Virus genome (UHGV): UHGV-0061407
Length of the DNA: 30,325 nt
Reading direction: 5' to 3' (one strand)
DNA from: a virus
In this document: positions 3,167-28,773 of the stretch, one piece after another
Numbering within the stretch: the stretch's first letter is position 1
How the letters are laid out: every line of letters begins with the position of its first letter
Position numbers and translations under genes: made by a program
The notes under the pieces: generated by a model
Seen by the model: the letters and a program-made list of their open reading frames with translations, nothing else
What the model was told of the DNA's origin: nothing
The model's database searches: none

Positions 3167-4903
3167 TCACACAATGATGGGATTACTGAAAAAGTCGTCG
3201 ATATCGCCAGAATCATCCTCATAGCCTTCGGAGGCACCGATTGCCATAGCGCCCGCTACAATGCCGTCGATACGCCCGGTACTTTTTTTCTTGGCAAAAA
3301 TTCGGTTTTCTTTCTGATCAGCCTCCGTCACTGCTGAAGCCGCATTCCAGCGAAGACAAGGGTTCGTCCTGATGATAATGACGCTGTCATCAAGCAACTC
3401 TTCAAACAATTCGATGGAGTGAGGCATCCACAGCCCGGAATCTTTCGCTTTGTAATACCCTTGCCCATGAGGGATTAAGGGAACAGAAACAGATGCTTCC
3501 TCAAGCTCCGGCTCAAGATATTTAATGCGATACTGGTCGAAGGCGATGGCCTTGATATCAAACTTCTGAGTCAGATCTGCAATGCGCTGGGCAACAAAGC
3601 CGTATTTCACTGCTTTGCCAGGAGTGGTGTGGATGTGACCATCTCGCTCCCAGGCGTCATAAGGTACCCGGTCCGTTTTGGCCCGTTCCAGTAACGTATC
3701 TTTCGGGGTCCAGAACTCCACCAGCAACTTACGTTGTTTTGGAAAAAACAACGCCAGTGCCGTCAAATCACGCGATCCGGACAGGTCTAAACCGCCATAG
3801 CATTCCTCACCTTCCAGTTCATCTGGATCAAAGCTCTCCTCACAACCCATCCAGACATCACTGCTCATCCACGGATTAGCCGCGTCAACCCACTGACAGA
3901 AGTTAAGACGTCTGACGATGCTCTCTTTCGAAGGCATCCCGCGGGCCTGAGTCACCTGCTCACGAAGATAGCTTTCTTCAAAGGTGTGACCCAGCGAAGG
4001 GTTAGCTTTTTTCCAGCAGGACTCATCCTTGAAAGGATCGTCTCCTTCATCCAGAGAACAAATGAAGGCAAAAAAGCTGTCATCTTCTATCGAACCGGCA
4101 GAAACCTTTCGGCCGTATTCGTGATAGTCATAGCAGACGCTCGTTTTATCGTGCCCACTGTTGGTGATCATGAAAATCAGCGCCTGCCGACGACCTTTGG
4201 TACCGGCACGCATCATTTCAACAACCTGATTGCTTTTATGCTCGTGAACTTCATCAATAAGAGCACAATGCGGTCGCGGGCCGGACTGTCCGTCATCTGA
4301 ACTGATTGGACGAAAGAAGGAACCAGACTGAAGAAAAGCCAGGTTCCATTCCTTCCCGGCACCACCTGATTTCTGAATACGTGCGGAAAGAGCTGGAGAC
4401 TGATCGACCATCGCCACCGCATCACGGAAAAGGACCATTGCCTGGTCTTTCTTCGTGGCAGCGGCATAAACTTCAGCGCGTGCTTCTTTATCCGCAGTGA
4501 GACAGTAAAGCCCTATACCCGCAGACAGAGGGGATTTACCGGATCCCTTCCCGGACTCCACATAGACCATTCGGAACCGGCGAAAACCTCTGGCGTTTTT
4601 CCAGCCAAAAATCGAACCGACGATGAAGCACTGCCATGGCAGCAACACGAAAGGCTCGCCTTCGAAATCACCACCATTGAGCTTCAGAACTTTCGCAAAA
4701 TAGTCAATCGAGCGTTGCGCCGCCTCAACATCCCAGTGCAGACCACGGGCATGACATGACTGCAGATCGTTAAGGTGGCGCTGGCATGAGTTACGTATGT
4801 CAGGACCAGCCAGTTCTTTGCCCGAGGTTACATCCATCGCATATTGGGTTGCAGGATCAACCGAAGAACTTGTCGAGCGTGTCCTCTTCGGGGTCTTCGC
4901 CAT
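3167..4903 (-). CDS. terL: Terminase large subunit
   Basis: 578 aa; Walker A-like ATPase motif (VESGKGSGKS) and C-terminal nuclease-like region; alternative start at internal Met (MDVTSG, about 4837) would remove the 47-nt overlap with terS. Confidence 0.9.
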   Translation of the reverse strand: MAKTPKRTRSTSSSVDPATQYAMDVTSGKELAGPDIRNSCQRHLNDLQSCHARGLHWDVEAAQRSIDYFAKVLKLNGGDFEGEPFVLLPWQCFIVGSIFGWKNARGFRRFRMVYVESGKGSGKSPLSAGIGLYCLTADKEARAEVYAAATKKDQAMVLFRDAVAMVDQSPALSARIQKSGGAGKEWNLAFLQSGSFFRPISSDDGQSGPRPHCALIDEVHEHKSNQVVEMMRAGTKGRRQALIFMITNSGHDKTSVCYDYHEYGRKVSAGSIEDDSFFAFICSLDEGDDPFKDESCWKKANPSLGHTFEESYLREQVTQARGMPSKESIVRRLNFCQWVDAANPWMSSDVWMGCEESFDPDELEGEECYGGLDLSGSRDLTALALFFPKQRKLLVEFWTPKDTLLERAKTDRVPYDAWERDGHIHTTPGKAVKYGFVAQRIADLTQKFDIKAIAFDQYRIKYLEPELEEASVSVPLIPHGQGYYKAKDSGLWMPHSIELFEELLDDSVIIIRTNPCLRWNAASAVTEADQKENRIFAKKKSTGRIDGIVAGAMAIGASEGYEDDSGDIDDFFSNPIIV

Positions 4904-5321
4904 TCACTTTCACCTTCGTCCTTGCCGCTGGCGTCAGACCGAATTCAACCAGGTAACTTTTAAAACGGCGGTCGGCATCGGCCAACATCGAAACGGCCGG
5001 GTTAGCTTTGATAAGAAAACCACCCTCGGTCTGGACGGTATAGGTTCTTCCCTCTACTGCGATGGTGTCGCGCAACTGAAGAATATCAGCGTAAATATCG
5101 CATAGCCGTTCAAGGGCTAAGGTGTCGGCAACCGTTAAAACCCCCATCCCGTCAAGGAGAACAGTCAACCTTCCCCAGGCAACCTTTCCCCAGTCGGTCA
5201 GGTGCGCCGGCGGGCTTGGAATTTCTCGCGCCGGAGTCGGTTCTTTATCGTTGAGTTTACGTTTGCCCGGGTTGCCTGAGACCACTTTGAGGTGGGTCGG
5301 TTTCGGGCGTCGTCCTGCCAT
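4857..5321 (-). CDS. terS: Terminase small subunit (P27-like family)
   Basis: 154 aa ORF directly upstream of terL on the same strand; composition and size typical of P27-family small terminase. Confidence 0.75.
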   Translation of the reverse strand: MAGRRPKPTHLKVVSGNPGKRKLNDKEPTPAREIPSPPAHLTDWGKVAWGRLTVLLDGMGVLTVADTLALERLCDIYADILQLRDTIAVEGRTYTVQTEGGFLIKANPAVSMLADADRRFKSYLVEFGLTPAARTKVKVNGEDPEEDTLDKFFG

Positions 5322-5438
5322 CGGAACCTCCCGGAAAAAAACTTTTCATTTCGCGGTTGTGCACAAAAAGGATGGGCGGCGGTCATTTCGGGTCAGACTT
5401 CTGAACTTTTGACCCGCCCCTCCCCTATGGAATTGACG

Positions 5439-5780
5439 TCATCTGAACCAGTGAGAATTTGGATCAAGCGGAATACCGTTTTCATCGCAGCCGATAACGG
5501 TGCCGCGCTTCTCCATTCGCTGCTTCGTTGAGTCATGGTGCTGCTTACACAGCCCTTGCCAGTTCTTCCGGCTCCAGAAAAGCTTTTGCGCTTTCGCTAT
5601 TGCCTTGCTGTCACCAGAACGCAGAGCCTCTTTCAGTTTATGCGGGATGATGTGGTCAACCACCGTGGCGGCTGTCACCCTGCCTTGCTCGTGGCACATG
5701 ACGCATAAGGGGTGCGCACGAAGGAATAGAAGACGCTCACGGTCCCATTTGCTGCCATATATGCGCGGTTCTTTGTTCAT
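5439..5780 (-). CDS. HNH endonuclease (packaging-associated)
   Basis: 113 aa with Cys/His-rich HNH-like motifs (CVMCHEQGR...VDHIIPH...LCKQHHDSTKQ); position upstream of terS as in HK97-like cos phages. Confidence 0.8.
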   Translation of the reverse strand: MNKEPRIYGSKWDRERLLFLRAHPLCVMCHEQGRVTAATVVDHIIPHKLKEALRSGDSKAIAKAQKLFWSRKNWQGLCKQHHDSTKQRMEKRGTVIGCDENGIPLDPNSHWFR

Positions 5781-5834
5781 GTTTTCGTTCCTTGAGCATT
5801 ATCACAGGCACTCAGTGAATGCCTGCTGTAATGC

Positions 5835-6080
5835 CTAGCTGGACTGCTCAGCAGCGGTATCAAAGAGCGGCAGCGCTTCAGTTGCTTCCTGCACTGCTTT
5901 CATCGTCTTTGCCACCACTTCAGTCTCTGATGTGACACGGCTGTATTGCTGGATGAATAGCTGATATTTAAGCGGACTATCCTGAACAAACTCTACAGCG
6001 ACTTTAGCTGCTGCTGTGTCGTAGTTCAGGGTGGAAAGCAGGTTCAGGCGAATCTGCTGGGCGTCGGTGATTTCTGCCAT
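5835..6080 (-). CDS. Hypothetical phage protein
   Basis: 81 aa ORF, same strand as packaging genes; no recognisable motif. Confidence 0.45.
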   Translation of the reverse strand: MAEITDAQQIRLNLLSTLNYDTAAAKVAVEFVQDSPLKYQLFIQQYSRVTSETEVVAKTMKAVQEATEALPLFDTAAEQSS

Positions 6081-6183
6081 GTCTTACCTCTGTGCGATGT
6101 GGGAGGCTTTATCAAACCACTTCGGAAAGCGGCTCCGTGATGCCATTAAAAAAGCCACCCGGAGGTGGCCTTTCTGATGGCTA

Positions 6184-6215
6184 AGAAAAAGGCCGCAAAA
6201 AAATGCGGCCTTTTG
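6184..6215. terminator. Terminator-like hairpin (ggccgca-aaaaaa-tgcggcc) flanked by A/T runs on both sides
   Basis: Perfect 7-bp GC-rich stem at 6192-6198/6205-6211, T-run 6212-6215 on plus strand and T-run on minus strand (complement of 6184-6190). Confidence 0.4.
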
Positions 6216-6657
6216 TCATGCACAGTTATCGATTAAATAAACTCTCAGGAGCCATCCGGGAGAGCCTCACTTAAACGAGTAACTAACCTCCGACAGACTG
6301 GTGTTGGGACGGAGGTGCAATGAGAGTAGTGTGTTTCATTTTTTTTCATACCAGCAACCACACAATAATGGCAGTTCTTCTTGTTAATCGATAACTGCTA
6401 TTCAATTAGTCTGGCCAGACGGATGATTATCCTGCCAGGGGTCATCACACTCACACGATGAAAATCTTTAAAATAAAACATTAGCCGGTTCACTCGCCTT
6501 CGAACAGGTGCAATGGCCTTGCACTGACGAAATTAGATTTAATCGTTCGTTGCCATCTTCCGTACAAGCCAAATAGTCACAAAAAAATAAAGGTTAAAAA
6601 GTGAGCTATTTACTGTCCTGTGGTGTATGGTTAGCAATCACTCACGAGGATAAAACC

Positions 6658-6828
6658 ATGTCTATGCTCAAAGACAAGATACGTACACTCAGGCCTGTAA
6701 AAAGCACCTGTCCTCACTGCTCTCGCCAGTCAACACATAGCCTGTCGAGAATTAAAAACGATATAACATTGATCTGCCCATACTGCGGAAATATTTTCCT
6801 CCCCTCAGAAAGTAAACCTGTTAAGTAA
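6658..6828 (+). CDS. Small zinc-ribbon protein (CxxC...CxxC), moron-like
   Basis: 56 aa from ATG 6658 with GAGGA RBS 9 nt upstream (track ORF 6601..6828 starts at an upstream GTG); CPHC and CPYC pairs; only plus-strand gene in a minus-strand block; hairpin actgaagc/gcttcagt downstream (6844-6877). Confidence 0.45.
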   Translation: MSMLKDKIRTLRPVKSTCPHCSRQSTHSLSRIKNDITLICPYCGNIFLPSESKPVK

Positions 6829-7042
6829 CTGATCGAATACTTTACTGAAGCTGATGTTCACTCTTAGGCTTCAGTAATCGAAACGTTGACATGCTTCTTC
6901 TCCTGCTTCTGGCAATAAAAAAGGCCGCCATTGGCGACCTGGGTTCAAATTATGTGTGTCAGGGCATATGACACGAGTAACCGCAGTAATAGCCACCGTT
7001 GGATTGCGGGTTGACTTTCTGCATATTCTCTGCAACCTACAT

Positions 7043-7237
7043 TTAAGTATAGATCGAACCAGCAGTCCCGATTATCGCAGCAAGCAGAAAGAAGGTGACG
7101 GCAGTTCTACGCATTTGCACGCCATAAAATGACAGAGCCAACCCGACGAAAGCAACAATTAAAACTGTCCACATATCCAGTAAGAGGAAGAGATATCCCT
7201 CGAAAGCACTGTCAATCAGTACGTCCACATCGCGCAT
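7043..7237 (-). CDS. Hypothetical small membrane protein
   Basis: 64 aa, two hydrophobic segments; poor RBS spacing, so weak. Confidence 0.3.
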   Translation of the reverse strand: MRDVDVLIDSAFEGYLFLLLDMWTVLIVAFVGLALSFYGVQMRRTAVTFFLLAAIIGTAGSIYT

Positions 7238-7406
7238 TCCTTTTAATAGATAAACTCCGCTGAAATACTATCACGATAGCGTTAGCAGACTATCTGCTAA
7301 TCATCAAGCATCGACTGACTTATTTTCGGTGGATTTCTTTTCGCAAGTTGTGTTAGCAATCAGCATCAGGGCGAGCCACCGCGCGGCATGCCCACATACA
7401 GGCTTC

Positions 7407-7646
7407 CTACATTTTGGTGCGAGCGATTGCCAGACAGCGCAAAGCTTCATCAATCTCCCGAGCCTGCTCAGCACTTAACATTGCCGGGCCATTACGGACA
7501 GCCAACAATTCACCTCGCTCGGTATCAAGCAAACTACATAAGTGGCGGCTGACGCCTTTGAGGCGGTTCATGCGCTCAATCTCGCCCGCGGTTAATGTGC
7601 GGTAGCCTTTTACAGTGCTGCCGTCCTGCGGTTTTGCTTCACTCAT
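7407..7646 (-). CDS. Hypothetical protein downstream of lysis cassette
   Basis: 79 aa ORF; stop/start overlap with o-spanin (7643-7646). Confidence 0.45.
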   Translation of the reverse strand: MSEAKPQDGSTVKGYRTLTAGEIERMNRLKGVSRHLCSLLDTERGELLAVRNGPAMLSAEQAREIDEALRCLAIARTKM

Positions 7647-7873
7647 TTCGTAGCCTTTTCGGTTGGTTGCGGGCAGTTAGCCTGCACTGATTTGTTGTGC
7701 GCCAGAATGTCGCGCTTGGTCTGCTTATCTAGCACGTCAATATCGTGGTCAGTCAGGTAGATAATCCGCACCCAGTTGCAGGCGGTATCAACCACCACCG
7801 GGGTGGGTAAATCTTTCGCGCAGCTCGCGATCAACATCGTCATCGCCCATACGCTTAACGTCTTCCTGTACAT
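7643..7873 (-). CDS. Outer-membrane spanin (Rz1-like lipoprotein), overlapping frame
   Basis: From internal Met (MYRKTLSVWAMTMLIASC...) signal peptide with lipobox I-A-S-C; Cys near C-terminus; begins inside the i-spanin gene in a different frame, the classic overlapped spanin architecture. Confidence 0.55.
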   Translation of the reverse strand: MYRKTLSVWAMTMLIASCAKDLPTPVVVDTACNWVRIIYLTDHDIDVLDKQTKRDILAHNKSVQANCPQPTEKATK

Positions 7874-8063
7874 CGCTGGCCCCTTTCGTTGCATCAGCCC
7901 GGCGTTCTGCCGCGGCGACGGTAGCAGCGGCGTTTTCTTCAGTGCGCTGCTGCTCGGCTTTGGCTTCCGCCTTGCTGGTCCCGCGCGCATGGCCTAACCC
8001 AAACGCGCCAGCGATTAAGCCAAGCAGAACGACTACCAGCCCGCTGATAAATTCAAGGCTCAT
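7788..8063 (-). CDS. Inner-membrane spanin (Rz-like)
   Basis: 91 aa; N-terminal TM segment (FISGLVVVLLGLIAGAFGL) followed by charged Ala/Glu/Arg-rich periplasmic region; overlaps o-spanin start. Confidence 0.5.
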   Translation of the reverse strand: MSLEFISGLVVVLLGLIAGAFGLGHARGTSKAEAKAEQQRTEENAAATVAAAERRADATKGASDVQEDVKRMGDDDVDRELRERFTHPGGG

Positions 8064-8404
8064 TGCGCCTCCTGCTGCTCATCGGCTATTTCTTTCAGCT
8101 TTGGCTGTCTGACGTATTGAGAGAGGATGGCGAGCACCACCAGGGCCGGGCTAATCATTGCCACAATGTTTGCAGGCAGAATATCTTTGATATCCGGCGG
8201 CAGCATCGCCCAGGCATGAAGAGCTGCGTCCGGAAATGATTGGGCCCATACACCGACCAAAGCGCCGGCAGCACCCAGGCGGACAGACCATGTTTTAAGC
8301 AGCAACCGGGCATGACCAACAAACTCCAGCCGGGTATATTTGCGCACTAGCAACAGAACCAGCACGGCCACCAGCGCCAGCAGAGCGAAAATAATCATCT
8401 TCAT
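8060..8404 (-). CDS. Lysis-cassette membrane protein (two TM segments; holin/antiholin-like or accessory)
   Basis: 114 aa between endolysin and spanins; two hydrophobic helices; start overlaps endolysin stop. Confidence 0.5.
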   Translation of the reverse strand: MKMIIFALLALVAVLVLLLVRKYTRLEFVGHARLLLKTWSVRLGAAGALVGVWAQSFPDAALHAWAMLPPDIKDILPANIVAMISPALVVLAILSQYVRQPKLKEIADEQQEAQ

Positions 8405-8943
8405 AGGCTCACCCGCTCTTTAACCCAGCCGTATAGAAACGCTTCGTTAGCCGGCCTCGCTTCGGCCAACTCAAGATAGCGAGCCCCCTGGCTGCAATTC
8501 AGCGCCTTTAGCAGCGTGGCTTCGCCATCTTTGCCACGAACGGCGAGATAACTTTTCAGGGCGGCGATGGTGAGATTGCCGATCGCGCCGTCCGTCTTCA
8601 GATCCGGATATAGCTTGCCCTGCATATTCAACGCCGTTAACCAGCGCTGCAGGAATGTACTGGCGACACGTGGCCCCATGTTCACGCCAGTATCACACAA
8701 TTCCTGTGCAATGGCTGGCGACAACTCGGCGATGCAGTCAAACTTCGGTTCTGTCCAGTATTGCGACAGATAAATTGCTTTGGCTGTATCCCGTGGTAAC
8801 GCCTTCATATCGCCGCTATAGCCATATGCGCGGGCGGTAGTCTGCGTGATACCCCAGCGCGTTGGGCCGCCTTTATCATTCGGGTTATTTACGTAACCCC
8901 CTTCTTTACCGAGGATGCCCTCGATAATCTGATCTGCTGTCAT
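8401..8943 (-). CDS. Endolysin, glycoside hydrolase family 108-like with C-terminal peptidoglycan-binding region
   Basis: 180 aa; N-terminal motif EGGYVNNPNDKGGPTRWGIT characteristic of GH108 phage lysozymes; flanked by holin and spanins. Confidence 0.85.
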   Translation of the reverse strand: MTADQIIEGILGKEGGYVNNPNDKGGPTRWGITQTTARAYGYSGDMKALPRDTAKAIYLSQYWTEPKFDCIAELSPAIAQELCDTGVNMGPRVASTFLQRWLTALNMQGKLYPDLKTDGAIGNLTIAALKSYLAVRGKDGEATLLKALNCSQGARYLELAEARPANEAFLYGWVKERVSL

Positions 8944-9251
8944 GGCTCCTTAACTCCGGTAATGCGCTCCCAGAAATAGGTCAAAGCAACAGAACCCATT
9001 GCCCCGCTAATTCCGGAAGTGGCCAGTATCATGTAAATGCTCAATCCGCTTTCAATGCTCACCAGGCCAGCAATAACGCCGGTAAACCCTGAAACCACCA
9101 TTTGGGCAAGAGCATTGATCAAGCTCCATGTTGCCTTGCTCTGCTTCACATCTATCAGGTAGCGGACAAGTCCACCCCAGCAAGCAATGATCAGCAGAAC
9201 CAGCCAGGACATCCCGGCAATGCTCTCTTTGTCTTGCATACGTTTAGCCAT
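8940..9251 (-). CDS. Holin (putative, 3 TM segments)
   Basis: 103 aa hydrophobic protein immediately upstream of endolysin with 4-nt overlap; GGAGG RBS upstream of ATG. Confidence 0.6.
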   Translation of the reverse strand: MAKRMQDKESIAGMSWLVLLIIACWGGLVRYLIDVKQSKATWSLINALAQMVVSGFTGVIAGLVSIESGLSIYMILATSGISGAMGSVALTYFWERITGVKEP

Positions 9252-9365
9252 AGTTACCGCCTCCGATGAAAGATCGGGAAGCTGTGTGTTTGAAAGGGGT
9301 CAGGCCCGTCAGGCTGGATTTAACAACGAAGCGTGTCGATGATGATTCCTGCGGGACCTGATAAT

Positions 9366-9389
9366 AAAAAAGCCATGCAAATGCATGGC
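9366..9389 (-). terminator. Intrinsic terminator (minus strand): gccatgca-aa-tgcatggc followed by U-run
   Basis: Perfect 8-bp stem 9372-9379/9382-9389; plus-strand A-run 9366-9371 gives a T-run on the minus strand. Confidence 0.45.
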
Positions 9390-9493
9390 CTTGTGATTTG
9401 AATCCGTTATTTACAAAATGTATTCGAGACAGTATCTTTCGACTTCCGGACAAAAAAACATATACCGGGACAAAATCTAAATGTAACTGCCTT

Positions 9494-9554
9494 GCCTGCA
9501 TGAAACCATGCGGGCTTTTTTTTTGCCCAAAGAAAAAGCCCACCGAAGTGGGCC
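9494..9554. terminator. Back-to-back terminator hairpins (plus-strand hairpin + T9; minus-strand hairpin ggcccac-uucg-gugggc + U5)
   Basis: Plus: stem 9494-9502/9507-9515 (one G-U), loop aaac, T-run 9516-9524. Minus: stem 9538-9543/9548-9553 with UUCG-type loop, followed by T-run (complement of 9531-9537). Confidence 0.5.
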
Positions 9555-9927
9555 TTACAGCTATCATCATTTTTTATTAGGTGTGGTGCCGGGTGCCTCC
9601 CGGTAAGTCGCCGCCAGTCCACAGACGACTCGCAATGCGCAAAAAAACATATCAGACTGGCAATGCCCCTCCGCATAGGGGGATTCACCACACGGATAAT
9701 TTAGGATGTAGTCATAGGCGGCGTCAATAACTGACACTCTGTCAAAGGCACCATTACGATGCCTTTTGCACAGTGCTAATCACTGGCTCTAATAAGGGGC
9801 CAGAGCAAAGCGATTACCCCGGCTACCAGCACTCCATCAGCCAGGATTGACATCATTTTGCTGGTGAAGTCGATAGCAACCACCAGAAACAAAAGCACCC
9901 CAGCTGCGGCCCAGCGAAGTTTACCGA

Positions 9928-10796: not shown

Positions 10797-11876
10797 CTAA
10801 GGTAAGGGATTTGGTTGTGGTGGCCGGTGCTCCAGCAAATTACGCATTTCACTGACCGTCTGTTCAAATCTCTCGGTTTCCAGTTCGACACCTAGCCCCC
10901 TTCGCCCGAGAAGAGCAGCCTGCTTGAGCGTTGAGCCTGATCCAAAAAAGAAATCAGCTACAACATCACCCGGGCGGCTACTCGCTGTGATTATCTGCTC
11001 CAGCATATCCGCAGGCTTTTCACATGGGTGTTTACCTGGATAAAACTGAACAGGCTTATGAGTCCAGACGTCGGTATATGGCACCGTGACTGATACGCTG
11101 AATGGTCGCCGTAAACGGTAATATTCCTGCTGGAGTTCAGAATATTTTCGGCTTAACGATTGCCAGGTGGCGACAAGCTGGTGGTGAGGTTTTCCCAGTT
11201 CGTTGCGCGAGTGCTTATCCATGGCGATTTTTTGAAACAAAGCCTGCAACTTTAAATAATCGGCTTCGTTCGGTAGCTGCCACTGACTAAGGCCAAACCA
11301 GTGGGAAACCATATTTTTCTTACCTGTGGCTTCTGCAATCTGAGCCGACGTCACGCCAAGAGATTCCCGTGCATCACGGAAGTAAGAAATTAAAGGCGTC
11401 ATGACGTGTTGCTTTAACTCATTACACTTTGCGGCATATCCATCGTCTTTGGGCCTGTATGGCCCCTGATAATGGTCGGCAAAAATGATACGCTCAGTGG
11501 CAGGGAAATAAGCGCGTAAGCTCTCCTTATTGCAGCCGTTCCATCGCCCTGATGGCTTAGCCCAGATGATATGGTTGAGCAGGTTAAACCGCTCTCTCAC
11601 CAACAGCTCAATATCCGCTGCCAGGCGGTGCCCACAGAACAGATACATGCTGCCGGCAGGTTTTAACACTCGCCAGAACTGTGCCAGACAGCTATCCAGC
11701 CAACGTAAATAGTCTTCGTCCCCCTTCCATTGGTTATCCCAGCCGTTTGGCTTCACCTTAAAATAAGGCGGATCGGTAACAATAAGATCAATGGAGTTAT
11801 CGGGTAGCGATGGGAGGTATTGCAGGCAATCAGCATTGATTAAATCAATACTGGATATTTTTACAGTATTTTTCAT
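10797..11876 (-). CDS. Orphan DNA methyltransferase, beta-class amino-MTase (N6-adenine or N4-cytosine)
   Basis: 359 aa; motif IV DPPY (LIVTDPPYF) near N-terminus and AdoMet motif I (DFFFGSGST) near C-terminus, the order typical of beta-class MTases; no adjacent restriction endonuclease ORF. Confidence 0.85.
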   Translation of the reverse strand: MKNTVKISSIDLINADCLQYLPSLPDNSIDLIVTDPPYFKVKPNGWDNQWKGDEDYLRWLDSCLAQFWRVLKPAGSMYLFCGHRLAADIELLVRERFNLLNHIIWAKPSGRWNGCNKESLRAYFPATERIIFADHYQGPYRPKDDGYAAKCNELKQHVMTPLISYFRDARESLGVTSAQIAEATGKKNMVSHWFGLSQWQLPNEADYLKLQALFQKIAMDKHSRNELGKPHHQLVATWQSLSRKYSELQQEYYRLRRPFSVSVTVPYTDVWTHKPVQFYPGKHPCEKPADMLEQIITASSRPGDVVADFFFGSGSTLKQAALLGRRGLGVELETERFEQTVSEMRNLLEHRPPQPNPLP

Positions 11877-12427: not shown

Positions 12428-13276
12428 TTATGCGATATTTATCAAATCAGACACCTTTGTCACACGTTTAAGCTGTGAGTCGGTATAACTCTCTTCCTCA
12501 AAGCATTTTGTAACCAGACTTTCATAGAAAGGTTTCCAGCTATATCGCCAGGTACGTTCTGGCAGACCAGGCAGCTCAGAGAGCATGCCCCTGTATGCAT
12601 TCGAAGACTTAGGACGACTGTAACCGCGGCCTTCACAACGTTTACATATTTTGTAGACAGGCACTCCCTGCAGCTCTGACTCTTTACGGTCCAGGGTTTT
12701 TCCCGTACCGCCACACTGACATCGCTTGCTGATTTTCCCGGTGCCGCCGCATTTGAAGCAGAGAACATGGTCAACCTCTTCCACCTGACGTTTTACTTCA
12801 AAATCCGAAGGTGACTGCCTGAGGTCTTTTGCCCATTGCGGTAATCTCATTGTGTAGTGGCTTTTTTCCACCATTGAGGTTTTTTTTATGAAGCCTGAAC
12901 CAGAACACTTCCGGCAATCTACGCTGTCAGCTGCAGACGAGGCATAGTCGTTATAAGCGAACCGAGCTATTATCAGCATACACAGCGGGAACTTCTTCCC
13001 TGCTGCTTTTCTTATCGAACGAGGCGCTTTTGATTTTGCATATTCAGCCAACCAACTGACGGATGCCTTTCTGTCATGTTCGCTGATTCCAGCTTTACCC
13101 AAAAACATTGACAGGCCTATTCCTGCCTCTGCCTGTGTCATCCCCAGAGCCGCCATTACATCTGTCACAGTAAGTTGCTCGCTGGCGGTTGCACGACCGC
13201 TATCGGAAATATGCATTCCTTTGGGCGCGAAAAATTTGGGAATTGATTCAATATTCATGCTCAGTACTCCATACAC
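12428..13276 (-). CDS. Q: Late-gene antiterminator Q (lambda-Q family)
   Basis: 282 aa; segments read as clearly related to lambda Q as I recall it: GRATASEQLTVTDVMAALGM; ARFAYNDYASSAA; zinc-finger-like CRKCSGSG and CKRCEGRGYSRP; C-terminal PERTWRYSWKPFYESLVTKCFEEES. Confidence 0.85.
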   Translation of the reverse strand: MYGVLSMNIESIPKFFAPKGMHISDSGRATASEQLTVTDVMAALGMTQAEAGIGLSMFLGKAGISEHDRKASVSWLAEYAKSKAPRSIRKAAGKKFPLCMLIIARFAYNDYASSAADSVDCRKCSGSGFIKKTSMVEKSHYTMRLPQWAKDLRQSPSDFEVKRQVEEVDHVLCFKCGGTGKISKRCQCGGTGKTLDRKESELQGVPVYKICKRCEGRGYSRPKSSNAYRGMLSELPGLPERTWRYSWKPFYESLVTKCFEEESYTDSQLKRVTKVSDLINIA

Positions 13277-16192: not shown

Positions 16193-16665
16193 TCTGCCTC
16201 CAGCACTATTTTCAACTCAAACGGAACATCTCCTCCGCAATAGCAGAGCGGGCCAAGGTCAGACATGAGGCTCCACAGGGTCATTGACGTATAGCCATTT
16301 TCGTCTGTTACCGGGGGCGAAAAGTCTCCGAAGATCGCCGGGTGCTGGATTCGATTCTGCTCGTGTTGTTTTTCCAAATGTCTGAGGGAAACTTCATTAA
16401 GTTTCACTTTTACGATGCTGTTGAGATTGACCGATATTTCTCTGGCCAACAGCGAAGGGGTGATACTGATACCGCGAGAAACCCCGCGGGTGATTGTGAT
16501 AACACCCTTTTTCTCCAACGCCTTAAGGTGTGTTGCTGCTGCATTGGGGGACCGGCACCCCAGCATGCCGGTCAGTTCGTAAGTTGTAGGCGGAAAACCA
16601 TGTTTACGCTGATATTCGATCAGGAGGTCAAGGACCTCCTGCTGCCTTAAGGTCAAGGAAGTCAT
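16189..16665 (-). CDS. LexA-type winged-helix DNA-binding domain protein lacking the S24 peptidase domain
   Basis: 158 aa from ATG 16665, which overlaps the C5-MTase stop (ATGA); N-terminus LTLRQQEVLDLLIEYQRKHGFPPTTYELTGMLGCRSPNAAATHLKALEKKGVITITRG resembles the LexA N-terminal DNA-binding domain; no Ser-Lys protease motifs. Confidence 0.55.
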   Translation of the reverse strand: MTSLTLRQQEVLDLLIEYQRKHGFPPTTYELTGMLGCRSPNAAATHLKALEKKGVITITRGVSRGISITPSLLAREISVNLNSIVKVKLNEVSLRHLEKQHEQNRIQHPAIFGDFSPPVTDENGYTSMTLWSLMSDLGPLCYCGGDVPFELKIVLEAE

Positions 16666-18749
16666 GCTGCCTGCTCCTCTCTGTTCACGCACATTTCGGG
16701 TAAGTTGGCGCGTACCAGCGCTTCGGCGAACGGTGGCGGAACGGCATTGCCACAGCGCGCGACCTGCTTATCTTTCGCGTACTTCACGCCGCGGTAATCC
16801 TGGTCAATGATGTACCACTCGGGGAAGCCCTGCGCCCGGTAAAGTTCGTGTGGCTGCAGCATGCGCATGCCGATATCAACGATGCGGTAAGTCACTCCGC
16901 CGATTTCCACCAGCCCGGTGCATTCCTCTCCGCAGTATTCCTGCAGGAACGCCAGCACCTGCTGCGCGCGCTCTTCGTCGTAGTCCTCGACCGCCAGAGT
17001 CGTTTTAACCTCCCCTACGTGCTGGCCGCCGGCAGTGATAGTCGGCATCGGCTCGTCAGTAGGCTGGCCGTCACGGCAAGTACCGCGGAGCTTGACCAGA
17101 TGAGACGTAACCATTGCGGCATCAGCCTTTGTCGTCATGGTTTGCAGTGGCTCGCTAACGTCACGTGGCCTGCTCTGCCCAGCGCAACCGCCGACACCAA
17201 CAACCTGAGCAGTAACCAGCGCATGATGATCGACAGTAGTAACTGAGTGAGTAGGTTCGTCCAGGTCAATACCGGTGCCCTGGTAGTTCCCGCCATAGTG
17301 TTTTGCCAGAAATGCCCCAACAACCGCATGTTTCCCGCCACCAGCCACAACGGTACCCAGTGGCTTATCCAGTCCTGGCACACGAGGTGCCTGGCCTGGC
17401 CGTTCCCCGTATCCCGTTTGAATGAGCGTCGGCACTACCAGCTGCGATTTACCGCCACCGCCCGCGGTGATTGTTGCGCTAGGCTCATCCGCACGGTGTC
17501 CGATGCTGGCGCCGAACTGCCGGGCGATAACCGGAGCGACGACACAGGCGCGTGATTCTTTCAGGATGGTGTGAGCGGGTTTATCTAGCGGGCGTGGTTT
17601 AGCCTGGTACTCGCTGCCGCCATTGCCAGCCAGGAACGGCGCCAGCTCTGCTTCAACAATACCCAGAGCGTGACCATTCCCGCCCGGGCGTTTTGCGGTA
17701 CCGGCCGTCACCGTCGGCAACGGATCGGTGACTTCCTGCCCGGTAGCGCCGGTTCGGAATTTTGTCAGATGAGGTACCGCAATTGCGTAGCCGTGGGTTT
17801 TCGTAATCGTCTGTAGCGGATCGTCCAGCGCCTGTCCCCGGAAACAGTCATATTTGCCACGTGTCGTTGTGTGATTGCACTTCACGATGAATGGCGAAGC
17901 ACTTTCGATAACAAAGCGCTGAATGCCGCGGGCAATCCGTTTTAGCGTATTCTCTGCCAGTGACTTTTTGCGACCGAAGATGCTCGGCGCGGGGATTGAC
18001 CAGTCTATGCATTCCGCAGCTGTACGCCACGGCTCCAGCTGGCCCGCCAGCACGGCGGCAGACTTCGGATCCCCGTGCGTGGCTTCCGGCCAGACTATCG
18101 ATTTCCCGTCCCGGCGCATCACCATGAAGAACCGCTTACGGATGGTCGGCGCGCCATAATCGCAGGCGCGCAGCTCGCGAAAATCGACGACATAACCCAG
18201 CCCGGCAATTAAGCGCTTGGCCTGCTCGCTATCCGGTGAAAACTCCAGAAACTCGCAACACTCCACCAGTGCAGGATGATCTGCTGGAATACCGGTGGTA
18301 AGCATCCCGACAAATGCATTGAAAGTTTCACCGATGCGTGCCGGATCCGGTCGCATTTCTGCCGCGAGTAACGGACCCCACGTTTTAAACTCTTCGACGT
18401 TTTCCAGCATCATGACTCGCGGGCCAACATCCAGCGCCCAACGAATGACGATCCATGCCAGCCCTCGAATAGCTTTCTCTACTGGTTTAGCACCTTTCGC
18501 TTTAGAAAAGTGACGACAGTCAGGCGAGAACCATGCCAGGCCGACAGGCTTGCCACTGGTAGCGGCTAATGGGGATACATCAAACACACTTTCGCAATAG
18601 TGAAGCGTGTCGGGATGGTTAGTGCGGTGCATAGCAACGGCGTTAACATCGTGGTTAATCGCGATATCAACGCTACGCCCTATCGCCAGCTCAATACCTG
18701 TACTGGCGCCACCGCCACCAGCAAAATTATCGACAATAATCTCACGCAT
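16662..18749 (-). CDS. DNA (cytosine-5)-methyltransferase, large, with eight internal repeat modules
   Basis: 695 aa; motif I FAGGGG, PC motif (FSPDCRHFSKAKG), ENV motif (MLENVEEF), C-terminal RCGNAVPPP; central 270 aa made of eight repeats with core D-x-P-x-x-T-[IVM]-T. Confidence 0.9.
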   Translation of the reverse strand: MREIIVDNFAGGGGASTGIELAIGRSVDIAINHDVNAVAMHRTNHPDTLHYCESVFDVSPLAATSGKPVGLAWFSPDCRHFSKAKGAKPVEKAIRGLAWIVIRWALDVGPRVMMLENVEEFKTWGPLLAAEMRPDPARIGETFNAFVGMLTTGIPADHPALVECCEFLEFSPDSEQAKRLIAGLGYVVDFRELRACDYGAPTIRKRFFMVMRRDGKSIVWPEATHGDPKSAAVLAGQLEPWRTAAECIDWSIPAPSIFGRKKSLAENTLKRIARGIQRFVIESASPFIVKCNHTTTRGKYDCFRGQALDDPLQTITKTHGYAIAVPHLTKFRTGATGQEVTDPLPTVTAGTAKRPGGNGHALGIVEAELAPFLAGNGGSEYQAKPRPLDKPAHTILKESRACVVAPVIARQFGASIGHRADEPSATITAGGGGKSQLVVPTLIQTGYGERPGQAPRVPGLDKPLGTVVAGGGKHAVVGAFLAKHYGGNYQGTGIDLDEPTHSVTTVDHHALVTAQVVGVGGCAGQSRPRDVSEPLQTMTTKADAAMVTSHLVKLRGTCRDGQPTDEPMPTITAGGQHVGEVKTTLAVEDYDEERAQQVLAFLQEYCGEECTGLVEIGGVTYRIVDIGMRMLQPHELYRAQGFPEWYIIDQDYRGVKYAKDKQVARCGNAVPPPFAEALVRANLPEMCVNREEQAA

Positions 18750-19695
18750 GAGCGGTCCCCCTCATGCTGCCGACCAGCCCACCAGCAACGGTGATGATTT
18801 CGCTGGTGGGCACGCGCTCCAGCCACAACTGGTTAATGTGGGCCTTCAGCTTGTTCTGCTGGGAGAACTCCAGATCCTCTGCGCCTTGTACCTGTCCAAA
18901 GACGAGTCCAACTTCCAGTGGCCAGATCCGGGATTCAGGCTCAGCCAATGATGCAACAGCATCGGGGATGATCACTTCAGGAGACTGAACTGGCGAAACT
19001 GGTGACAGGAATTTTCCTGCAGCAAACTCAGCCAGCACCATACTTGCGCGCCCTTTTGCTTCCAGCTCAACGCGATCGATATAGCTAAAATGTTCACCGC
19101 GCCAGGTCTTATCAAATACCGCAATGGCCCCGGCAAAGAATGCGCTGGTGGGCTTCTGCTTTTCGTCGGCCGGCACAAACCACGTTGGGAGATCGAATCC
19201 AATACGACCACGAATAAACATGATGTGATCGGCATATTCCGGCCACCATGTTTCACTTGTTGCTGACTTCACGAGGTAAATGTAACGACCACCCTTTTCA
19301 CGCTGCTCGGCGGTATAGTTCATAATATGAGTCATGCCAGTGATGGCTTGTTTTTCATGGTACTGCGAACGGCTGTACGGCGGATTAGCAAAGGCAGCTC
19401 CTCCGAGTTCTACCAAACGACCAGACCAGTCCTGCGTCAGCGCATTATCTTCAGCGGTATACCATGCCGGACATTTTGTATTGCTGTCGTCTGCAAACAG
19501 GTCCAGTACCAGCGGGCCAAACATAGCGTTAACGCCCCAGAACAGCAGATCTGGTGTCCGCCATTGATCGCCAACCTCTTTCAAATAATGCGCACTGCGC
19601 TGGCGCTGTTCCTCAAGTGCCAGGCAATAAGGGTTGATGGTTTTTGTCAAAGTTTGCTCTTCTGCGGTCATAGCTTCTTGTACTTCCTGACTCAT
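18742..19695 (-). CDS. Phage Dam-like N6-adenine DNA methyltransferase
   Basis: 317 aa; motif WRTPDLLFWGVNAMFGPLVLDLFADDSN followed by FANPPYS (NPPY catalytic motif) typical of phage Dam-family N6A MTases; 8-nt overlap with C5-MTase start. Confidence 0.75.
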   Translation of the reverse strand: MSQEVQEAMTAEEQTLTKTINPYCLALEEQRQRSAHYLKEVGDQWRTPDLLFWGVNAMFGPLVLDLFADDSNTKCPAWYTAEDNALTQDWSGRLVELGGAAFANPPYSRSQYHEKQAITGMTHIMNYTAEQREKGGRYIYLVKSATSETWWPEYADHIMFIRGRIGFDLPTWFVPADEKQKPTSAFFAGAIAVFDKTWRGEHFSYIDRVELEAKGRASMVLAEFAAGKFLSPVSPVQSPEVIIPDAVASLAEPESRIWPLEVGLVFGQVQGAEDLEFSQQNKLKAHINQLWLERVPTSEIITVAGGLVGSMRGTAHA

Positions 19696-22957: not shown

Positions 22958-23632
22958 ATGAAAACAATCCAGGAAATCAGGCGGTTAAACGCCAGAAAAT
23001 TGCGTGATGGTGTTGGCGGTAATATTTACTTCGCCAATATGATTGATCGCGAGCCGACTCAAACCAGCCGGTTCATGGGAGATGGCGCCACTAAAAACAT
23101 CGGCGATGCAATGGCAAGGCACATTGAAAAGTGTTTTGACTTACCTACTGGGTGGTTAGATCAGGAACATCAAACCACTAATGTTGCTAAAACGCCCGAT
23201 GTCTCTGATACATATAGAAATATCACCATGGTTCCGGTTATATCCTGGGTACAAGCAGGAGCATGGACCGAAGTTGGCTATGCTGAGGTTGATTTGAATA
23301 GCACTGAAAACTATCCATGCCCTGTTCCTTGTGGGCCGATGACTTATATTCTTCGTGTTATTGGCGACTCAATGATCGACGAATATCGGCCCGGTGATAT
23401 GATTTTTGTTGATCCCGAAGTTCCAGCAGTGCATGGAGATGATGTGATCGCCTTAATGCACGATTCTGGTGAGACTACATTTAAACGGTTGATTGAAGAT
23501 GCAGGACAACGCTATCTAAAAGCACTTAACTCAAACTGGCCAGAACCTTACATCAAAATCAATGGTAATTGCTCTATCATTGGTACCGTAATTTTTTCCG
23601 GTAAACCAAGACGATACCGAACGAAAACATAA
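22958..23632 (+). CDS. cI: CI-type prophage repressor with C-terminal S24 (LexA-like) autopeptidase domain
   Basis: 224 aa; N-terminal HTH region, C-terminal S24 motifs (VIGDSM serine, FKRL lysine); divergent from cro. Confidence 0.85.
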   Translation: MKTIQEIRRLNARKLRDGVGGNIYFANMIDREPTQTSRFMGDGATKNIGDAMARHIEKCFDLPTGWLDQEHQTTNVAKTPDVSDTYRNITMVPVISWVQAGAWTEVGYAEVDLNSTENYPCPVPCGPMTYILRVIGDSMIDEYRPGDMIFVDPEVPAVHGDDVIALMHDSGETTFKRLIEDAGQRYLKALNSNWPEPYIKINGNCSIIGTVIFSGKPRRYRTKT

Positions 23633-25564: not shown

Positions 25565-26392
25565 ATGTCTCAGTTAGACAGCGGTACTTTTCAGCAGGTT
25601 AAAGATCTGGTTCTTTCCGGTTATCACCTGAACGATATCCACGGCCTGGCCTGTCCGACCGCCCTGCTACCGCAGAATACCAGCGTTGAAAGCCTGGAGC
25701 GTTTTGCTCTTGAGCGTTTCCGTTTCCGCGGTGCCATGGACACGACCAGCATTGATGATTTCGTTCGCTATTCTGTCGCTTATGCCCGGGAAGAAGAAAA
25801 AGCACGTTGCTTTATTGATGCCGATAACATGCTGGCTCGTTCTATCTTCAATATCGGTACGTTGGACAACCTAGGCCACGCTGATAACGTCGCCTCGATC
25901 AAGCTTAAGAAGACAGCGCCCTTCCGCGCGTTACTGGCGATCAACGGCGATCACCTTAATCAGAAGCAAATAGCCGAATGGCTCGAAGACTGGAGTGACT
26001 ATCTCACTGCGTTCGATTCCGACGGTCAGACAATGAAAAATGCACAGGCAGCGCAGGCGGTTCGCCGTGTCACTATCCAGCAAACTAATGCCGCCGATCA
26101 TGAAGACGGTGATTTCAGCGGCAAAAAATCGCTGATGCAAAGTATCGAAGCCAGCAGTAAAGATGTTATGCCGGTCGCGTTTGAGTTTAAGTGTGTACCC
26201 TATGAAGGCCTGGGCGAACGTCGTTTCAGTCTTCGCAATAGCCTGCTCAAAAGTAGCGATCCGGTATTCGTTCTGCGTATTGTCCAGCTGGAAGCCCAGG
26301 AAGAAGCGATCGCCAATGAGTTCCGAGATCTGCTGATTGGCAAGTTCGACGGCAAGCCGGTAGAAACCTTTATCGGCAACTTCAAAGCCTGA
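25565..26392 (+). CDS. Hypothetical protein, YfdQ-like (DUF2303-type) by size and synteny (unverified)
   Basis: 275 aa ORF; assignment by length and neighbourhood, not by recognised motif. Confidence 0.5.
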   Translation: MSQLDSGTFQQVKDLVLSGYHLNDIHGLACPTALLPQNTSVESLERFALERFRFRGAMDTTSIDDFVRYSVAYAREEEKARCFIDADNMLARSIFNIGTLDNLGHADNVASIKLKKTAPFRALLAINGDHLNQKQIAEWLEDWSDYLTAFDSDGQTMKNAQAAQAVRRVTIQQTNAADHEDGDFSGKKSLMQSIEASSKDVMPVAFEFKCVPYEGLGERRFSLRNSLLKSSDPVFVLRIVQLEAQEEAIANEFRDLLIGKFDGKPVETFIGNFKA

Positions 26393-26521
26393 TTGCTCTC
26401 CATTAAATCCCCGGCGCCGCGGGGATTTATTAAAGCGTAATCCTGCAATTAATCGCCACATGGCGAGGGATTCCTACACCCAAAAAACAGCGCTGTGCAG
26501 GCGTAAAGTATGGAGAAAAAA

Positions 26522-27049
26522 ATGAGCTTTATTCAAACCTTTTCAGGCAAACATTTTAACTATCTCGACATCCAGCAAGACGCCATCGAGATCGAAGATA
26601 TTGCTAATGCACTCTCGAACATCTGCCGCTTTGCCGGTCACCTGCCTGAGTTCTATAGCGTCGGCCAGCACAGCGTTTTAACAAGCCAACTGGTACCTCA
26701 AGAATTTGCGCTTGAAGCGCTGCTGCATGACGCCGCCGAGGCATATTTGCAGGATATCCCTGCCCCATTAAAACGCCTTCTTCCTGACTACCGCGCAATT
26801 GAAGATCAGGTTGATGCAGCTATTCGCCAAAAATTCGGCCTGCCGGCTGAGCAGCACCCGACCGTTAAATATGCCGACCTGGTGATGCTGGCCAGCGAAC
26901 GTCGCGACTTTGAGATCGACGACGGCACCCACTGGCCGATGCTCGACGGCGTCATTCCTACCGACCAGTTTTTGATTAACCCCGTCCGCCCGGGCCAGTC
27001 TTACGGCATGTTCATGAACCGCTTTAACCAACTGATGGAGCGGCGCTAA
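26522..27049 (+). CDS. HD-domain phosphohydrolase (YfdR-like)
   Basis: 175 aa from ATG 26522 (GGAG RBS); His...His-Asp pattern (GQHSV...LLHDAAEAYLQD) consistent with the HD superfamily. Confidence 0.6.
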   Translation: MSFIQTFSGKHFNYLDIQQDAIEIEDIANALSNICRFAGHLPEFYSVGQHSVLTSQLVPQEFALEALLHDAAEAYLQDIPAPLKRLLPDYRAIEDQVDAAIRQKFGLPAEQHPTVKYADLVMLASERRDFEIDDGTHWPMLDGVIPTDQFLINPVRPGQSYGMFMNRFNQLMERR

Positions 27050-27249
27050 TGGCACATGTGAAAGTGAAAGAATTGGTTGCTGCAGCATACGCTGCAGCAC
27101 CTGACCTACCACCAGCAGCAGCACAATTAATGCAAGACATAGCGTCAAGGCTGGATGTGACCTTTGTCGCCCTTACAGAGGCAATGGACCAGAACACCGC
27201 TATGGCCGCGATGATAGCGAACCTGAGCGAGGAAAACAGAAATGGCTAA
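27049..27249 (+). CDS. Hypothetical small protein
   Basis: 66 aa; start overlaps previous stop (TAATG) and stop overlaps next start, indicating translational coupling. Confidence 0.45.
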   Translation: MAHVKVKELVAAAYAAAPDLPPAAAQLMQDIASRLDVTFVALTEAMDQNTAMAAMIANLSEENRNG

Positions 27250-28027
27250 AAACTCGATCGATGCTTATGGCGCCAGCGGCAAGACAAACGTTCTGATGTT
27301 CGAGCCGGAAAATCTGCATATTGTCACTGACAAGGCCCACCCGCTTTACGATGAGCGAGTCAATCTGCCGATCGATGAAGGGATGGTGCTGAATATCAAA
27401 GAGCTGGGTGTTCTTGAGCCGATTATTGTCTGGAAAGACCCTGAAAAGGGGCTCACCTGTGTGGTTGTCGGTCGTCAGCGCGTTAAACATACGCTGGAAG
27501 CCAATAAGCTCCTGCTGAAAGAAGGCAAAACACCGCTGCTTGTTCCTGGAGTCGTTAAGCGTGGGTCGGCAAACCAAATGGCCAAATATATGGTCAGCGA
27601 AAACGAAATCCGCCGACCTGATACGCCACTAGGTCGAGCTAAGAAAATGTCAGACGCGCTGGATCGTGGTCATGACGAGGACGACCTTGCGGTGTTGTTT
27701 GGCTGTAGCGTTCAGACTGTCCGTGCAACGCTGTCACTACTCGATGCTACCCAGGCTGTTCGGGAAGCGGTGGAGTCTGGCACAGTTACCGTTACCCAGG
27801 CGCGTCAGCTTGGCGCGCTCCCACCTGAAGAGCAGCGGGCAAAAGTGGCAGAAATCGAGCTGGCGACAGCTGGTACCAAAGGCCATGAAAAATCCCGTCG
27901 GCAGCGTCAGGTTCTCGGTGAGGCAAAGCCGCGCATCAAATCGCGTAAGGAAATAACTAAAGCCCTTGAAGATGCCAGCGGCGAATATGCCGAGGCTCTG
28001 CGCTGGGTAATTGGGGAGGCGCAATGA
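27242..28027 (+). CDS. ParB-like nuclease/partition-domain protein
   Basis: 261 aa; ParB-box-like segment LGVLEPIIVWKDPEKGLTCVVVGRQRVKH and HTH-like LAVLFGCSVQTVRATL. Confidence 0.65.
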   Translation: MAKNSIDAYGASGKTNVLMFEPENLHIVTDKAHPLYDERVNLPIDEGMVLNIKELGVLEPIIVWKDPEKGLTCVVVGRQRVKHTLEANKLLLKEGKTPLLVPGVVKRGSANQMAKYMVSENEIRRPDTPLGRAKKMSDALDRGHDEDDLAVLFGCSVQTVRATLSLLDATQAVREAVESGTVTVTQARQLGALPPEEQRAKVAEIELATAGTKGHEKSRRQRQVLGEAKPRIKSRKEITKALEDASGEYAEALRWVIGEAQ

Positions 28028-28254
28028 ACTTTGAACCTGAAAATTACAGCCGGCGCGCCCTTCTCTGGTTTGCTGCACTGGTTAATGTTGCCGGGTGGGT
28101 TGCAGTAGTCGCTGTGACCTGGGCTAATGGTGATTCAGAAAAACGAATGACTGGTGCTGACTGGCCTACCGCCATCGAGATGTATAAGCCCACCGTTCGC
28201 ATTGTTGAGGAAAATATACCTCGCGCCGCCGGCATCAAGGTGGAGGCTGAGTAG
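28024..28254 (+). CDS. Hypothetical small membrane protein
   Basis: 76 aa; hydrophobic segment LLWFAALVNVAGWVAVVAVTWA; ATGA overlap with upstream gene. Confidence 0.5.
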   Translation: MNFEPENYSRRALLWFAALVNVAGWVAVVAVTWANGDSEKRMTGADWPTAIEMYKPTVRIVEENIPRAAGIKVEAE

Positions 28255-28773
28255 ATGGCACTGACACACGATGAACTTTGCCAGATAGCCTATCAATTCC
28301 TTAAGCGGAACGGCTTCAAAGTCTGCTTTCATGATCGCTTTGTCGCTGTCACCAGTACCGGTGAGCAGCCAGACGCGATGGGGTTCAGGAACTTCGCATC
28401 CTGCCTGATAGAGGCGAAGTGCTCCCGTGCCGACCTACTGGCAGACAGGAAAAAACGCTTCCGGATACGCCCGGAGCTTGGCATGGGTGACTGGCGATTC
28501 TTTATCAGCGAGCCGGGGATTATCTCTGTTGAAGACCTTCCGCCAGGCTGGGGTCTGCTGCACGTAATCAACGGGAAAGTGCGCAAGATTCACGGGTGGC
28601 CGCAGGGTAATTGCTGCTGGGGTAATCCAGAGGATAAGCCATTCGCAGGCAATAAACAGGTCGAATGCGATTACATGCTGTCAGCACTGCGTCGGATGGA
28701 GCTGAGAGGGCATCTAAACGAAATTTACGACGGCGTGATAGTCAATCGCGCCGCAGAAGGAGCCAATCAATGA
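28255..28773 (+). CDS. PD-(D/E)XK-like nuclease fold protein (MmcB-like, tentative)
   Basis: 172 aa; candidate D...E-x-K motif (GEQPDAMGF...CLIEAKCS). Confidence 0.45.
   Translation: MALTHDELCQIAYQFLKRNGFKVCFHDRFVAVTSTGEQPDAMGFRNFASCLIEAKCSRADLLADRKKRFRIRPELGMGDWRFFISEPGIISVEDLPPGWGLLHVINGKVRKIHGWPQGNCCWGNPEDKPFAGNKQVECDYMLSALRRMELRGHLNEIYDGVIVNRAAEGANQ

Follow-up and report, generated by a model that had tools for sequence, protein, structure and literature searches.

Why does a gene of 56 codons stand alone between the packaging and the lysis genes of a prophage, on the strand opposite to both, and does its product serve the phage or the bacterium that carries it? The question is raised by a 30,325-nt stretch of the virus genome UHGV-0061407 (hereafter the window, meaning the whole stretch at full length), which is a lambdoid prophage of the Klebsiella oxytoca complex. 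The original prediction, made from the letters of this DNA, had described a lone plus-strand zinc-ribbon gene lying between the two modules, oriented against the late operon and flanked by non-coding DNA, and this description agrees with what is found: the gene, here called ynfU, has DUF2560, HNH, TerS and TerL on one side and the spanins, the endolysin and the holins on the other (Table 1), and every one of these flanking lysis and packaging genes is on the minus strand, whereas ynfU is on the plus strand. Since the cI-like repressor is encoded on the plus strand and the late genes on the minus strand, ynfU shares the strand of the repressor and opposes late transcription. The gene is preceded by 577 nt and followed by 214 nt in which no supported ORF is present; the 440-nt spacer upstream contains small ORFs (24 aa at 6320-6394, plus strand; 34-38 aa, minus strand), which were rejected because start or stop codons are not conserved, and an Rfam search of positions 6080-7060 at E ≤ 1 gave sub-threshold, terminator-like matches only.

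Table 1. Positions of the features of the window that are discussed in the text.
Feature	Position	Strand	Remarks
TerL	3167-4903	-	packaging side
TerS	4857-5321	-	packaging side
HNH	5439-5780	-	packaging side
DUF2560	5835-6080	-	packaging side
Two tandem G+C-rich hairpins	6142-6217	both	A runs before, T runs after
Exchangeable cassette (moron unit)	6145-6884	+	terminators, 440 nt non-coding, ynfU, 3' hairpin
Conserved upstream block	6592-6657	+	GGTTA(a/t)AAA..AGCTAT..N16..GTATGGT..CAC..AGGA; footprint of about 70 nt
Candidate -10 hexamer TATGGT	6626-6631	+	predicted; transcription start site (TSS) near 6638-6640
Shine-Dalgarno GAGGA	6646-6650	+	7 nt before ATG; read from sequence
ynfU-family CDS	6658-6828	+	56 aa + stop; Cys4 zinc-ribbon small protein; MSMLKDKIRTLRPVKSTCPHCSRQSTHSLSRIKNDITLICPYCGNIFLPSESKPVK
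3' hairpin	6842-6877	+	14 nt past stop; -17.1 kcal/mol, z = -2.7, 2/200 shuffles as good
Intrinsic terminator of converging minus-strand gene	6922-6940	-	stem then TTTTTTAT; outside cassette
64-aa two-TM protein (phrog_36556)	7043-7237	-	converges on ynfU; PHROG 1.9e-28
Acb2/Tad1-hairpin-like gene	7407-7646	-	nonsense codon at 7407-7409
Spanins	7788-8063 and 7643-7990	-	lysis side
Second holin	8060-8404	-	lysis side
GH108 endolysin	8401-8943	-	lysis side
Holin	8940-9251	-	lysis side
STnc100 match	9525-9722	-	full-length Rfam sRNA
DNA methyltransferases	10797-11876, 16662-18749, 18742-19695	-	three genes
Q antiterminator	12428-13276	-	same window
cI-like S24 repressor	22958-23632	+	same window
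Operon beyond the repressor	25565-30023	+	nucleotide-metabolism genes

Other parts of the window are of interest in their own right. The match to the sRNA STnc100 reaches 99.8 bits against a gathering score of 47 and is located upstream of the first holin gene in the direction of late transcription, where it may correspond to a late-promoter leader region. The three DNA methyltransferases are of an N6/N4 type II-like orphan, a C5-cytosine and a Dam-like type, and presumably represent anti-restriction cargo. The plus-strand operon beyond the repressor encodes a DUF2303 protein, a YfbR-like 5'-deoxynucleotidase (a weak match), a ParB-HTH protein and a protein with a dATP/dGTP pyrophosphohydrolase domain.

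As judged from its sequence, the product of the small gene is almost certainly a member of the YnfU family. It scores 52.5 bits with the Pfam model PF23499 (YnfU; gathering threshold 27, E = 4.5e-14) and 69.1 bits with the NCBIfam model NF038384 (zinc_YnfU_fam; cut-off 36), where its residues 1-51 are aligned with profile positions 1-52 of 52. The two CxxC pairs that had been noticed earlier are present as C18-P-H-C21 and C40-P-Y-C43, both of the CPxC form; the family is marked by two such knuckles, spaced about 18 residues, in proteins about 50-60 aa long, and among 54 family members their columns are invariant or at least 90% conserved. The identical protein has a GenBank entry, "YnfU family zinc-binding protein [Klebsiella]", which covers about 89 contigs of the K. 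oxytoca complex, so that the gene itself is no discovery, the exact protein being already annotated under the family name. CP110123.1 is 99.9% identical to the window over 4500-9800. A profile search gave 90 clusters (at 90% identity), almost all named YnfU and, apart from a single one labelled Azospira oryzae, from Enterobacterales. When 1.84 billion representatives were searched exhaustively with phmmer, just 39 proteins were found at E ≤ 1e-3, which indicates that the family is small and taxonomically narrow. At the nucleotide level the region has no close match by megablast among INPHARED phages or complete E. coli genomes, and a sensitive blastn search found one E. coli homologue with 75% identity.

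The mechanical ORF list gives this frame as 6601-6828 on the plus strand, 75 aa from a GTG codon, but in relatives the extension is hit by indels and stops and is not conserved in frame. The 56-aa start at ATG 6658 is preferred on account of that broken extension, of the spacing to the Shine-Dalgarno sequence and of the shared methionine, which opens all 22 distinct homologous CDS; the E. coli K-12 protein is also 56 aa long. The good ribosome-binding site of the original prediction stands, and its AGGA core is kept in all but one of 21 distinct upstream sequences, L012 having GGGA. Initiation at Met3, which gives the 54-aa form of some GenBank entries, was rejected, for this ATG is 13 nt from the Shine-Dalgarno sequence and the methionine is absent in relatives. 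Within the subfamily of the window protein dN/dS is 0.03-0.15 with synonymous sites saturated, and this strong purifying selection implies that the peptide itself is selected. With two curated HMM cut-offs passed as well, the predicted 56-aa protein is real, and conservation, one of the two points on which the original prediction had staked itself, is present across the 22 distinct CDS.

The gene is carried on a discrete cassette that is replaced as a unit. In three phages (L080, L081 and L130) about 190 unrelated bp are found in its place, and the flanks, corresponding to window positions 5796-6144 and 6885-7647, retain 89-98% identity to the window. Sister contigs were taken to be phage contigs on which this DUF2560 gene is preceded by a recognisable lysis gene; there are 74 of them, and in 68 the interval between the two genes contains no YnfU gene. 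That interval measures anywhere from 108 bp to 3.3 kb, and the DUF2560/lysis junction is a cargo-accepting site. When the window was compared by BLAST with loci that encode the identical protein, a common block of about 6126-7345 was seen in prophages with differing packaging and lysis modules. The cassette has a G+C content of 42.2%; the figure is 51.2% in the window as a whole, 54.6% in the lysis genes and 52.0% in the packaging genes, and it is higher than in the cassette for every sampled stretch of the window that has the cassette's length of 740 bp. According to a review (PMC3594210), in which Bor of phage lambda is cited as a moron product, the hallmarks of a moron are extra DNA, deviant composition, a promoter and terminator of its own, and expression from the repressed prophage. 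Extra DNA relative to sister phages and a deviant G+C content are both found here; the architecture is that of a classic moron, and the reading of the gene as a moron in the original prediction is supported.

Regarding expression, the DNA immediately upstream of the start codon is a conserved block that is retained among relatives whose synonymous sites are saturated and that travels with the gene. This block may be a promoter/operator region, containing an operator or a site for an activator, or it may act as a 5' RNA element. Its TATGGT motif is invariant in all 21 distinct upstream sequences, and a -10-like hexamer, read by eye, is located 21-30 nt before the ATG in seven of seven YnfU subfamilies (TAGAAT, TGgTAGAAT, TGaTATAAT, TATACT, TATGGT and TACTGT being the forms encountered); from this invariance, and from the same distance in the seven subfamilies, TATGGT is taken as the probable -10 element and the TSS is placed accordingly (Table 1). 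No conserved -35 element was found in the block, the AGCTAT at that position having 0/6 consensus matches, and a PWM scan gave no consistent sigma-70 promoter. Two other kinds of signal were considered and rejected: a sigma-70 candidate, TTGCCA-16-AATAGT at 6550-6577, whose spacer differs by +4/-6 nt in relatives and which is absent in the E. coli/Citrobacter types, and sigma-54, LexA-box and Zur-box sites within the block, for which comparison by eye with the consensus showed key bases to be unconserved or misspaced. On the plus-strand RNA, pairing of AGCUAU with AUGGUU is possible, and two outer pairs covary. RNAalifold assigns the 5' block only -5.8 kcal/mol; the covariation score beats the shuffles (0/500), the structure being taken from the same alignment, and single-sequence folds of the block are no better than shuffles.

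On its upstream side the cassette is closed by the two tandem G+C-rich hairpins, which fold at -46.7 kcal/mol (z = -8.5) on the minus strand and at -40.4 kcal/mol (z = -5.9) on the plus strand; the A runs and T runs around them make them predicted terminators in both directions. Late transcription has to pass these hairpins before it reaches the packaging genes, which follow closely. The downstream hairpin of the original prediction is present, but lacks the U tract of a canonical intrinsic terminator; it is possibly a weak terminator or a 3' stabiliser. Klebsiella and Raoultella keep its stem; three other loci (L043-L045) have at the equivalent place a hairpin that differs in sequence, and the E. 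coli/Citrobacter type has none. Farther on, the terminator of the converging minus-strand gene has a stem of 8 pairs, of which 6 are G-C, at -14.7 kcal/mol. The proposal that ynfU has its own expression signals is favoured by the insulating terminators and by the conserved block with TATGGT, and it is weakened by the lack of a recognisable -35 element and by a 3' hairpin without a U tract. Own signals of a non-canonical kind are likely.

Evidence that a family member is expressed comes from E. coli K-12, where YnfU (b4776) is encoded by the cryptic prophage Qin. It was found by Ribo-RET and confirmed by SPA tagging in uninduced cells, and no other of the small proteins newly found there reached its level or had a recognisable motif, its two CPXC knuckles being noted and zinc binding inferred from them (bioRxiv 10.1101/511675); PIRT-seq found it independently (PMC12350097). 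Since Qin is defective and the cells were uninduced, this represents prophage-state expression of a member of the family. Taken with the signals described above, the window unit is probably an autonomous moron, predicted to be expressed in the lysogen.

What the protein does has been approached from its physical character and from remote similarity. YnfU proteins are uniformly basic (median pI 9.7, net charge +7), and the window protein is predicted from its motif to bind zinc. Its AF2 model, of moderate confidence (pLDDT 74.1, pTM 0.47), has strands at residues 13-17 and 24-28 and short bridges. Foldseek gave no match at E ≤ 0.001 in the PDB or BFVD, the top ones being zinc ribbons, and a PDB sequence-profile search gave nothing significant. 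The weak top matches of the PDB-profile and Foldseek searches are ribosome-bound or RNA-polymerase zinc ribbons (eL42, bL33, HVO_2753-like and Rpo12); because these matches are non-significant and zinc ribbons are promiscuous, this lead towards the ribosome or RNA may reflect the abundance of the fold in the PDB. The literature that mentions YnfU gives no function for it, and a paper on silver nanoparticles reports only a polymorphism in the ynfU/cspB intergenic region.

The reading that we favour on balance is that of a YnfU-family zinc ribbon encoded by a self-contained, lysogen-orientated moron and acting on a host macromolecule; the degree of belief given to the whole leans chiefly on the family identity and on the moron architecture. 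The product would be a cytoplasmic, strongly basic, single-domain Cys4 zinc ribbon, its low-G+C cargo cassette having entered a lambdoid prophage at the point where lysis and packaging genes meet. A promoter just upstream, with TATGGT as the putative -10 element, would drive ynfU in the repressed prophage, the flanking terminators would insulate it from the late operon, and head-on late transcription would probably silence it during lytic growth. In the most speculative step, the target of YnfU would be a host macromolecule that is itself conserved, with RNA, the ribosome or some other nucleic-acid machine as the likeliest candidates, and by binding it YnfU would adjust host physiology in the lysogen rather than serve phage growth; this step is suggested by the uniform basicity of the family, by chromosomal orthologues that have no partner gene, and by the repeated company of csp and gns cargo genes in E. 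coli lineages. That YnfU is specifically a cytoplasmic zinc-ribbon adaptor binding RNA, the ribosome or a related host machine can be put forward only tentatively. A still more detailed version, which we consider rather improbable, would make YnfU a bacterial family of mini zinc ribbons that bind the ribosome or RNA, analogous to the archaeal ribosome-bound HVO_2753-like proteins; prophages would have captured and multiplied such genes repeatedly, next to those for Csp RNA chaperones and Gns proteins, and their expression in the lysogen would readjust host translation during stress, for example cold or metal limitation. YnfU itself might then bind the conserved 5' block and so regulate its own gene.

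These proposals can be weighed against the surroundings of the gene in other genomes. The context census comprised 54 loci with a window-type YnfU (at least 75% identical), collected from genome and IMG/VR scans and from exact-protein look-ups, together with hand-picked members of other subfamilies. One or two extra divergent YnfU paralogues are present within 5 kb at 16 of the 54 loci, and several prophages (L033, L050, L056, L065 and others) have two or three paralogues, 35-45% identical, which occupy both the Q-to-holin and the spanin-to-terminase niches on either strand. An Acb2/Tad1-like anti-CBASS gene adjoins YnfU in 18 of the 54 loci. In the window codon 80 of this gene, of the anti-CBASS sponge family (Pfam PF24729, 30.7 bits), has changed from CAG to the nonsense codon TAG, which leaves 79 aa, and sister prophages have an intact 97-aa protein that is identical up to the nonsense site. 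The 64-aa two-TM protein is found at 14 of the 54 loci and is a frequent neighbour of YnfU; it was rejected as an obligatory partner on that count, the E. coli neighbour being moreover unrelated. In two loci (L004 and L010) a second YnfU paralogue is placed beside an 80%-identical second copy of this protein, and at L004 (4731-4916 and 5210-5374) the pairing of the 64-aa protein with a divergent YnfU paralogue can be seen to recur.

Such neighbours and paralogues give the main rival its footing. It holds that YnfU acts between phages or in counter-defence, as a zinc-ribbon inhibitor of a superinfecting phage or of a host defence, and that the paralogues have diversified by target; the presence of up to three divergent copies per prophage, the extra copies at the 16 loci and the anti-CBASS neighbour at the 18 speak for it, and lysogen-orientated morons often encode exclusion functions (PMC3594210). 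However, PADLOC-DB yielded no significant defence model for the window protein, the match over the CxxC region (PDC-M14A, 15.9 bits, E = 0.0032) being to a candidate model; the very low dN/dS reveals no arms-race diversification within the subfamily; and the single chromosomal copies of YnfU at fixed loci, with no phage or defence genes nearby, fit a role in physiology better. We consider this rival unlikely, and the action of a lysogen-expressed YnfU on a host macromolecule is preferred to it.

The position of the gene across loci bears on two further alternatives. When reference lysis and packaging proteins were mapped onto the 54 loci, 51 had recognisable genes within 5 kb, and in all 51 ynfU has the lysis genes downstream of its 3' end and the packaging genes upstream, every one of them on the opposite strand. 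The loci are not independent, many being near-identical prophages, and it is the mosaic backgrounds that give this regularity its meaning: four terminase types (P27-type with HNH, Nu1/GpA, DUF1441/GpA and Terminase_2/6) and three endolysin families are represented. So strict an antisense orientation, with terminators on both sides, could be taken to mean that the gene works in cis, its convergent transcription dampening read-through from lysis to packaging genes in the lysogen while the peptide is secondary; yet purifying selection acts on the amino acids, the Cys/Pro knuckles are invariant, which argues that the protein itself is selected, and the chromosomal orthologues have no late operon to oppose, so that this explanation appears very improbable. 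A part in the lytic cycle, for instance as an accessory to packaging or lysis that is made together with the late proteins, would agree with a location between the two modules and nevertheless has only a very slight probability, given that the gene is on the strand opposite to every late gene at all 51 informative loci, is missing at this junction in 68 of the 74 sister phages, is common to phages with four unrelated terminase systems, occurs outside prophages as well, and in K-12 is expressed without induction from a defective prophage. Finally, the shortness of the ORF might suggest a chance frame or a decaying pseudogene fragment without function, but with two curated models matched above their cut-offs, 90 homologue clusters across Enterobacterales, dN/dS of 0.03-0.15 and a translated K-12 homologue, there is next to no probability in this.

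Taken together, the comparative picture suggests that the function of YnfU concerns the host cell rather than phage growth. If ribosome or RNA binding is true, a prophage-borne layer of translational control would exist in lysogens; if it is not, YnfU is one more small moron, and the finding gains interest only if the family has a defined target such as the ribosome. The antisense position at the lysis cassette, the paralogues, the chromosomal orthologues, the basic charge and the upstream element all offer experimental handles. Modestly new here are the strict antisense placement, the discrete boundaries of the cassette, the multiple paralogues, the chromosomal orthologues and the non-canonical upstream element.

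Among known systems, K-12 YnfU is the only family member with experimental evidence of translation. It and the window protein are of the same family, both basic, 56 aa long and with two CPxC knuckles at the same spacing, and both genes are prophage-borne, run opposite to the late operon and adjoin the lysis cassette; the two proteins share only 38% identity, however, and their promoter regions differ. Genes of the K-12 type (in Qin, phage HannyBb and Klebsiella phage ST13-OXA48phi12.4), again antisense to the late operon, lie ahead of the holin with Q on their other side; the window gene is downstream of the spanins and before the packaging genes. The company also differs: the K-12 type keeps cspB- and cspF-like genes beside it, whereas the window type has the 64-aa TM protein and Acb2-like genes, and in E. 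coli lineages ynfU is repeatedly found beside cargo of the csp, gns and ymcF type. The arrangement of cspB-like and cspF-like genes with a K-12-type ynfU is common to Qin (L001 8806-10068) and to E. coli phage PHB10 (L148 3959-5083), and in PHB10 the module is near the integrase and umuDC and not near lysis genes.

Outside prophages, YnfU genes of other subfamilies are found on the chromosomes of Serratia, Yersinia and Enterobacter. These are lone genes for PF23499 proteins of 53-56 aa, 37-47% identical to the window protein, and they share with it the -10-like hexamer 21-30 nt before the ATG; they are single-copy and differ in occupying fixed loci between housekeeping genes (AKR/VIT1; dsbB; tautomerase), and no conserved partner gene was found at these Serratia, Yersinia and Enterobacter loci. 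The archaeal HVO_2753-like proteins, eL42, bL33 and Rpo12 resemble the window protein in size and basic character, a resemblance across domains of life with E values from 0.0009 (over a partial stretch) to above 0.05, for which membership is not claimed. Mu Com and P2 Ogr are likewise small Cys4 phage regulators, Com binding RNA and Ogr RNA polymerase. Both are late-gene activators in lytic development, so that, although comparable to YnfU in size and in the Cys4 motif, they are not lysogen-orientated cargo, and neither is among the 25 Pfam matches listed for the window protein. The bor gene of phage lambda is found immediately after Rz, is transcribed against the late operon and is expressed in lysogens. 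Bor is an outer-membrane lipoprotein, whereas YnfU is predicted to be cytoplasmic and has neither signal peptide nor TM segment; the proteins are unrelated, but the two genes occupy the same niche, each being a small cargo gene that is placed where the lysis cassette ends and runs against late transcription.
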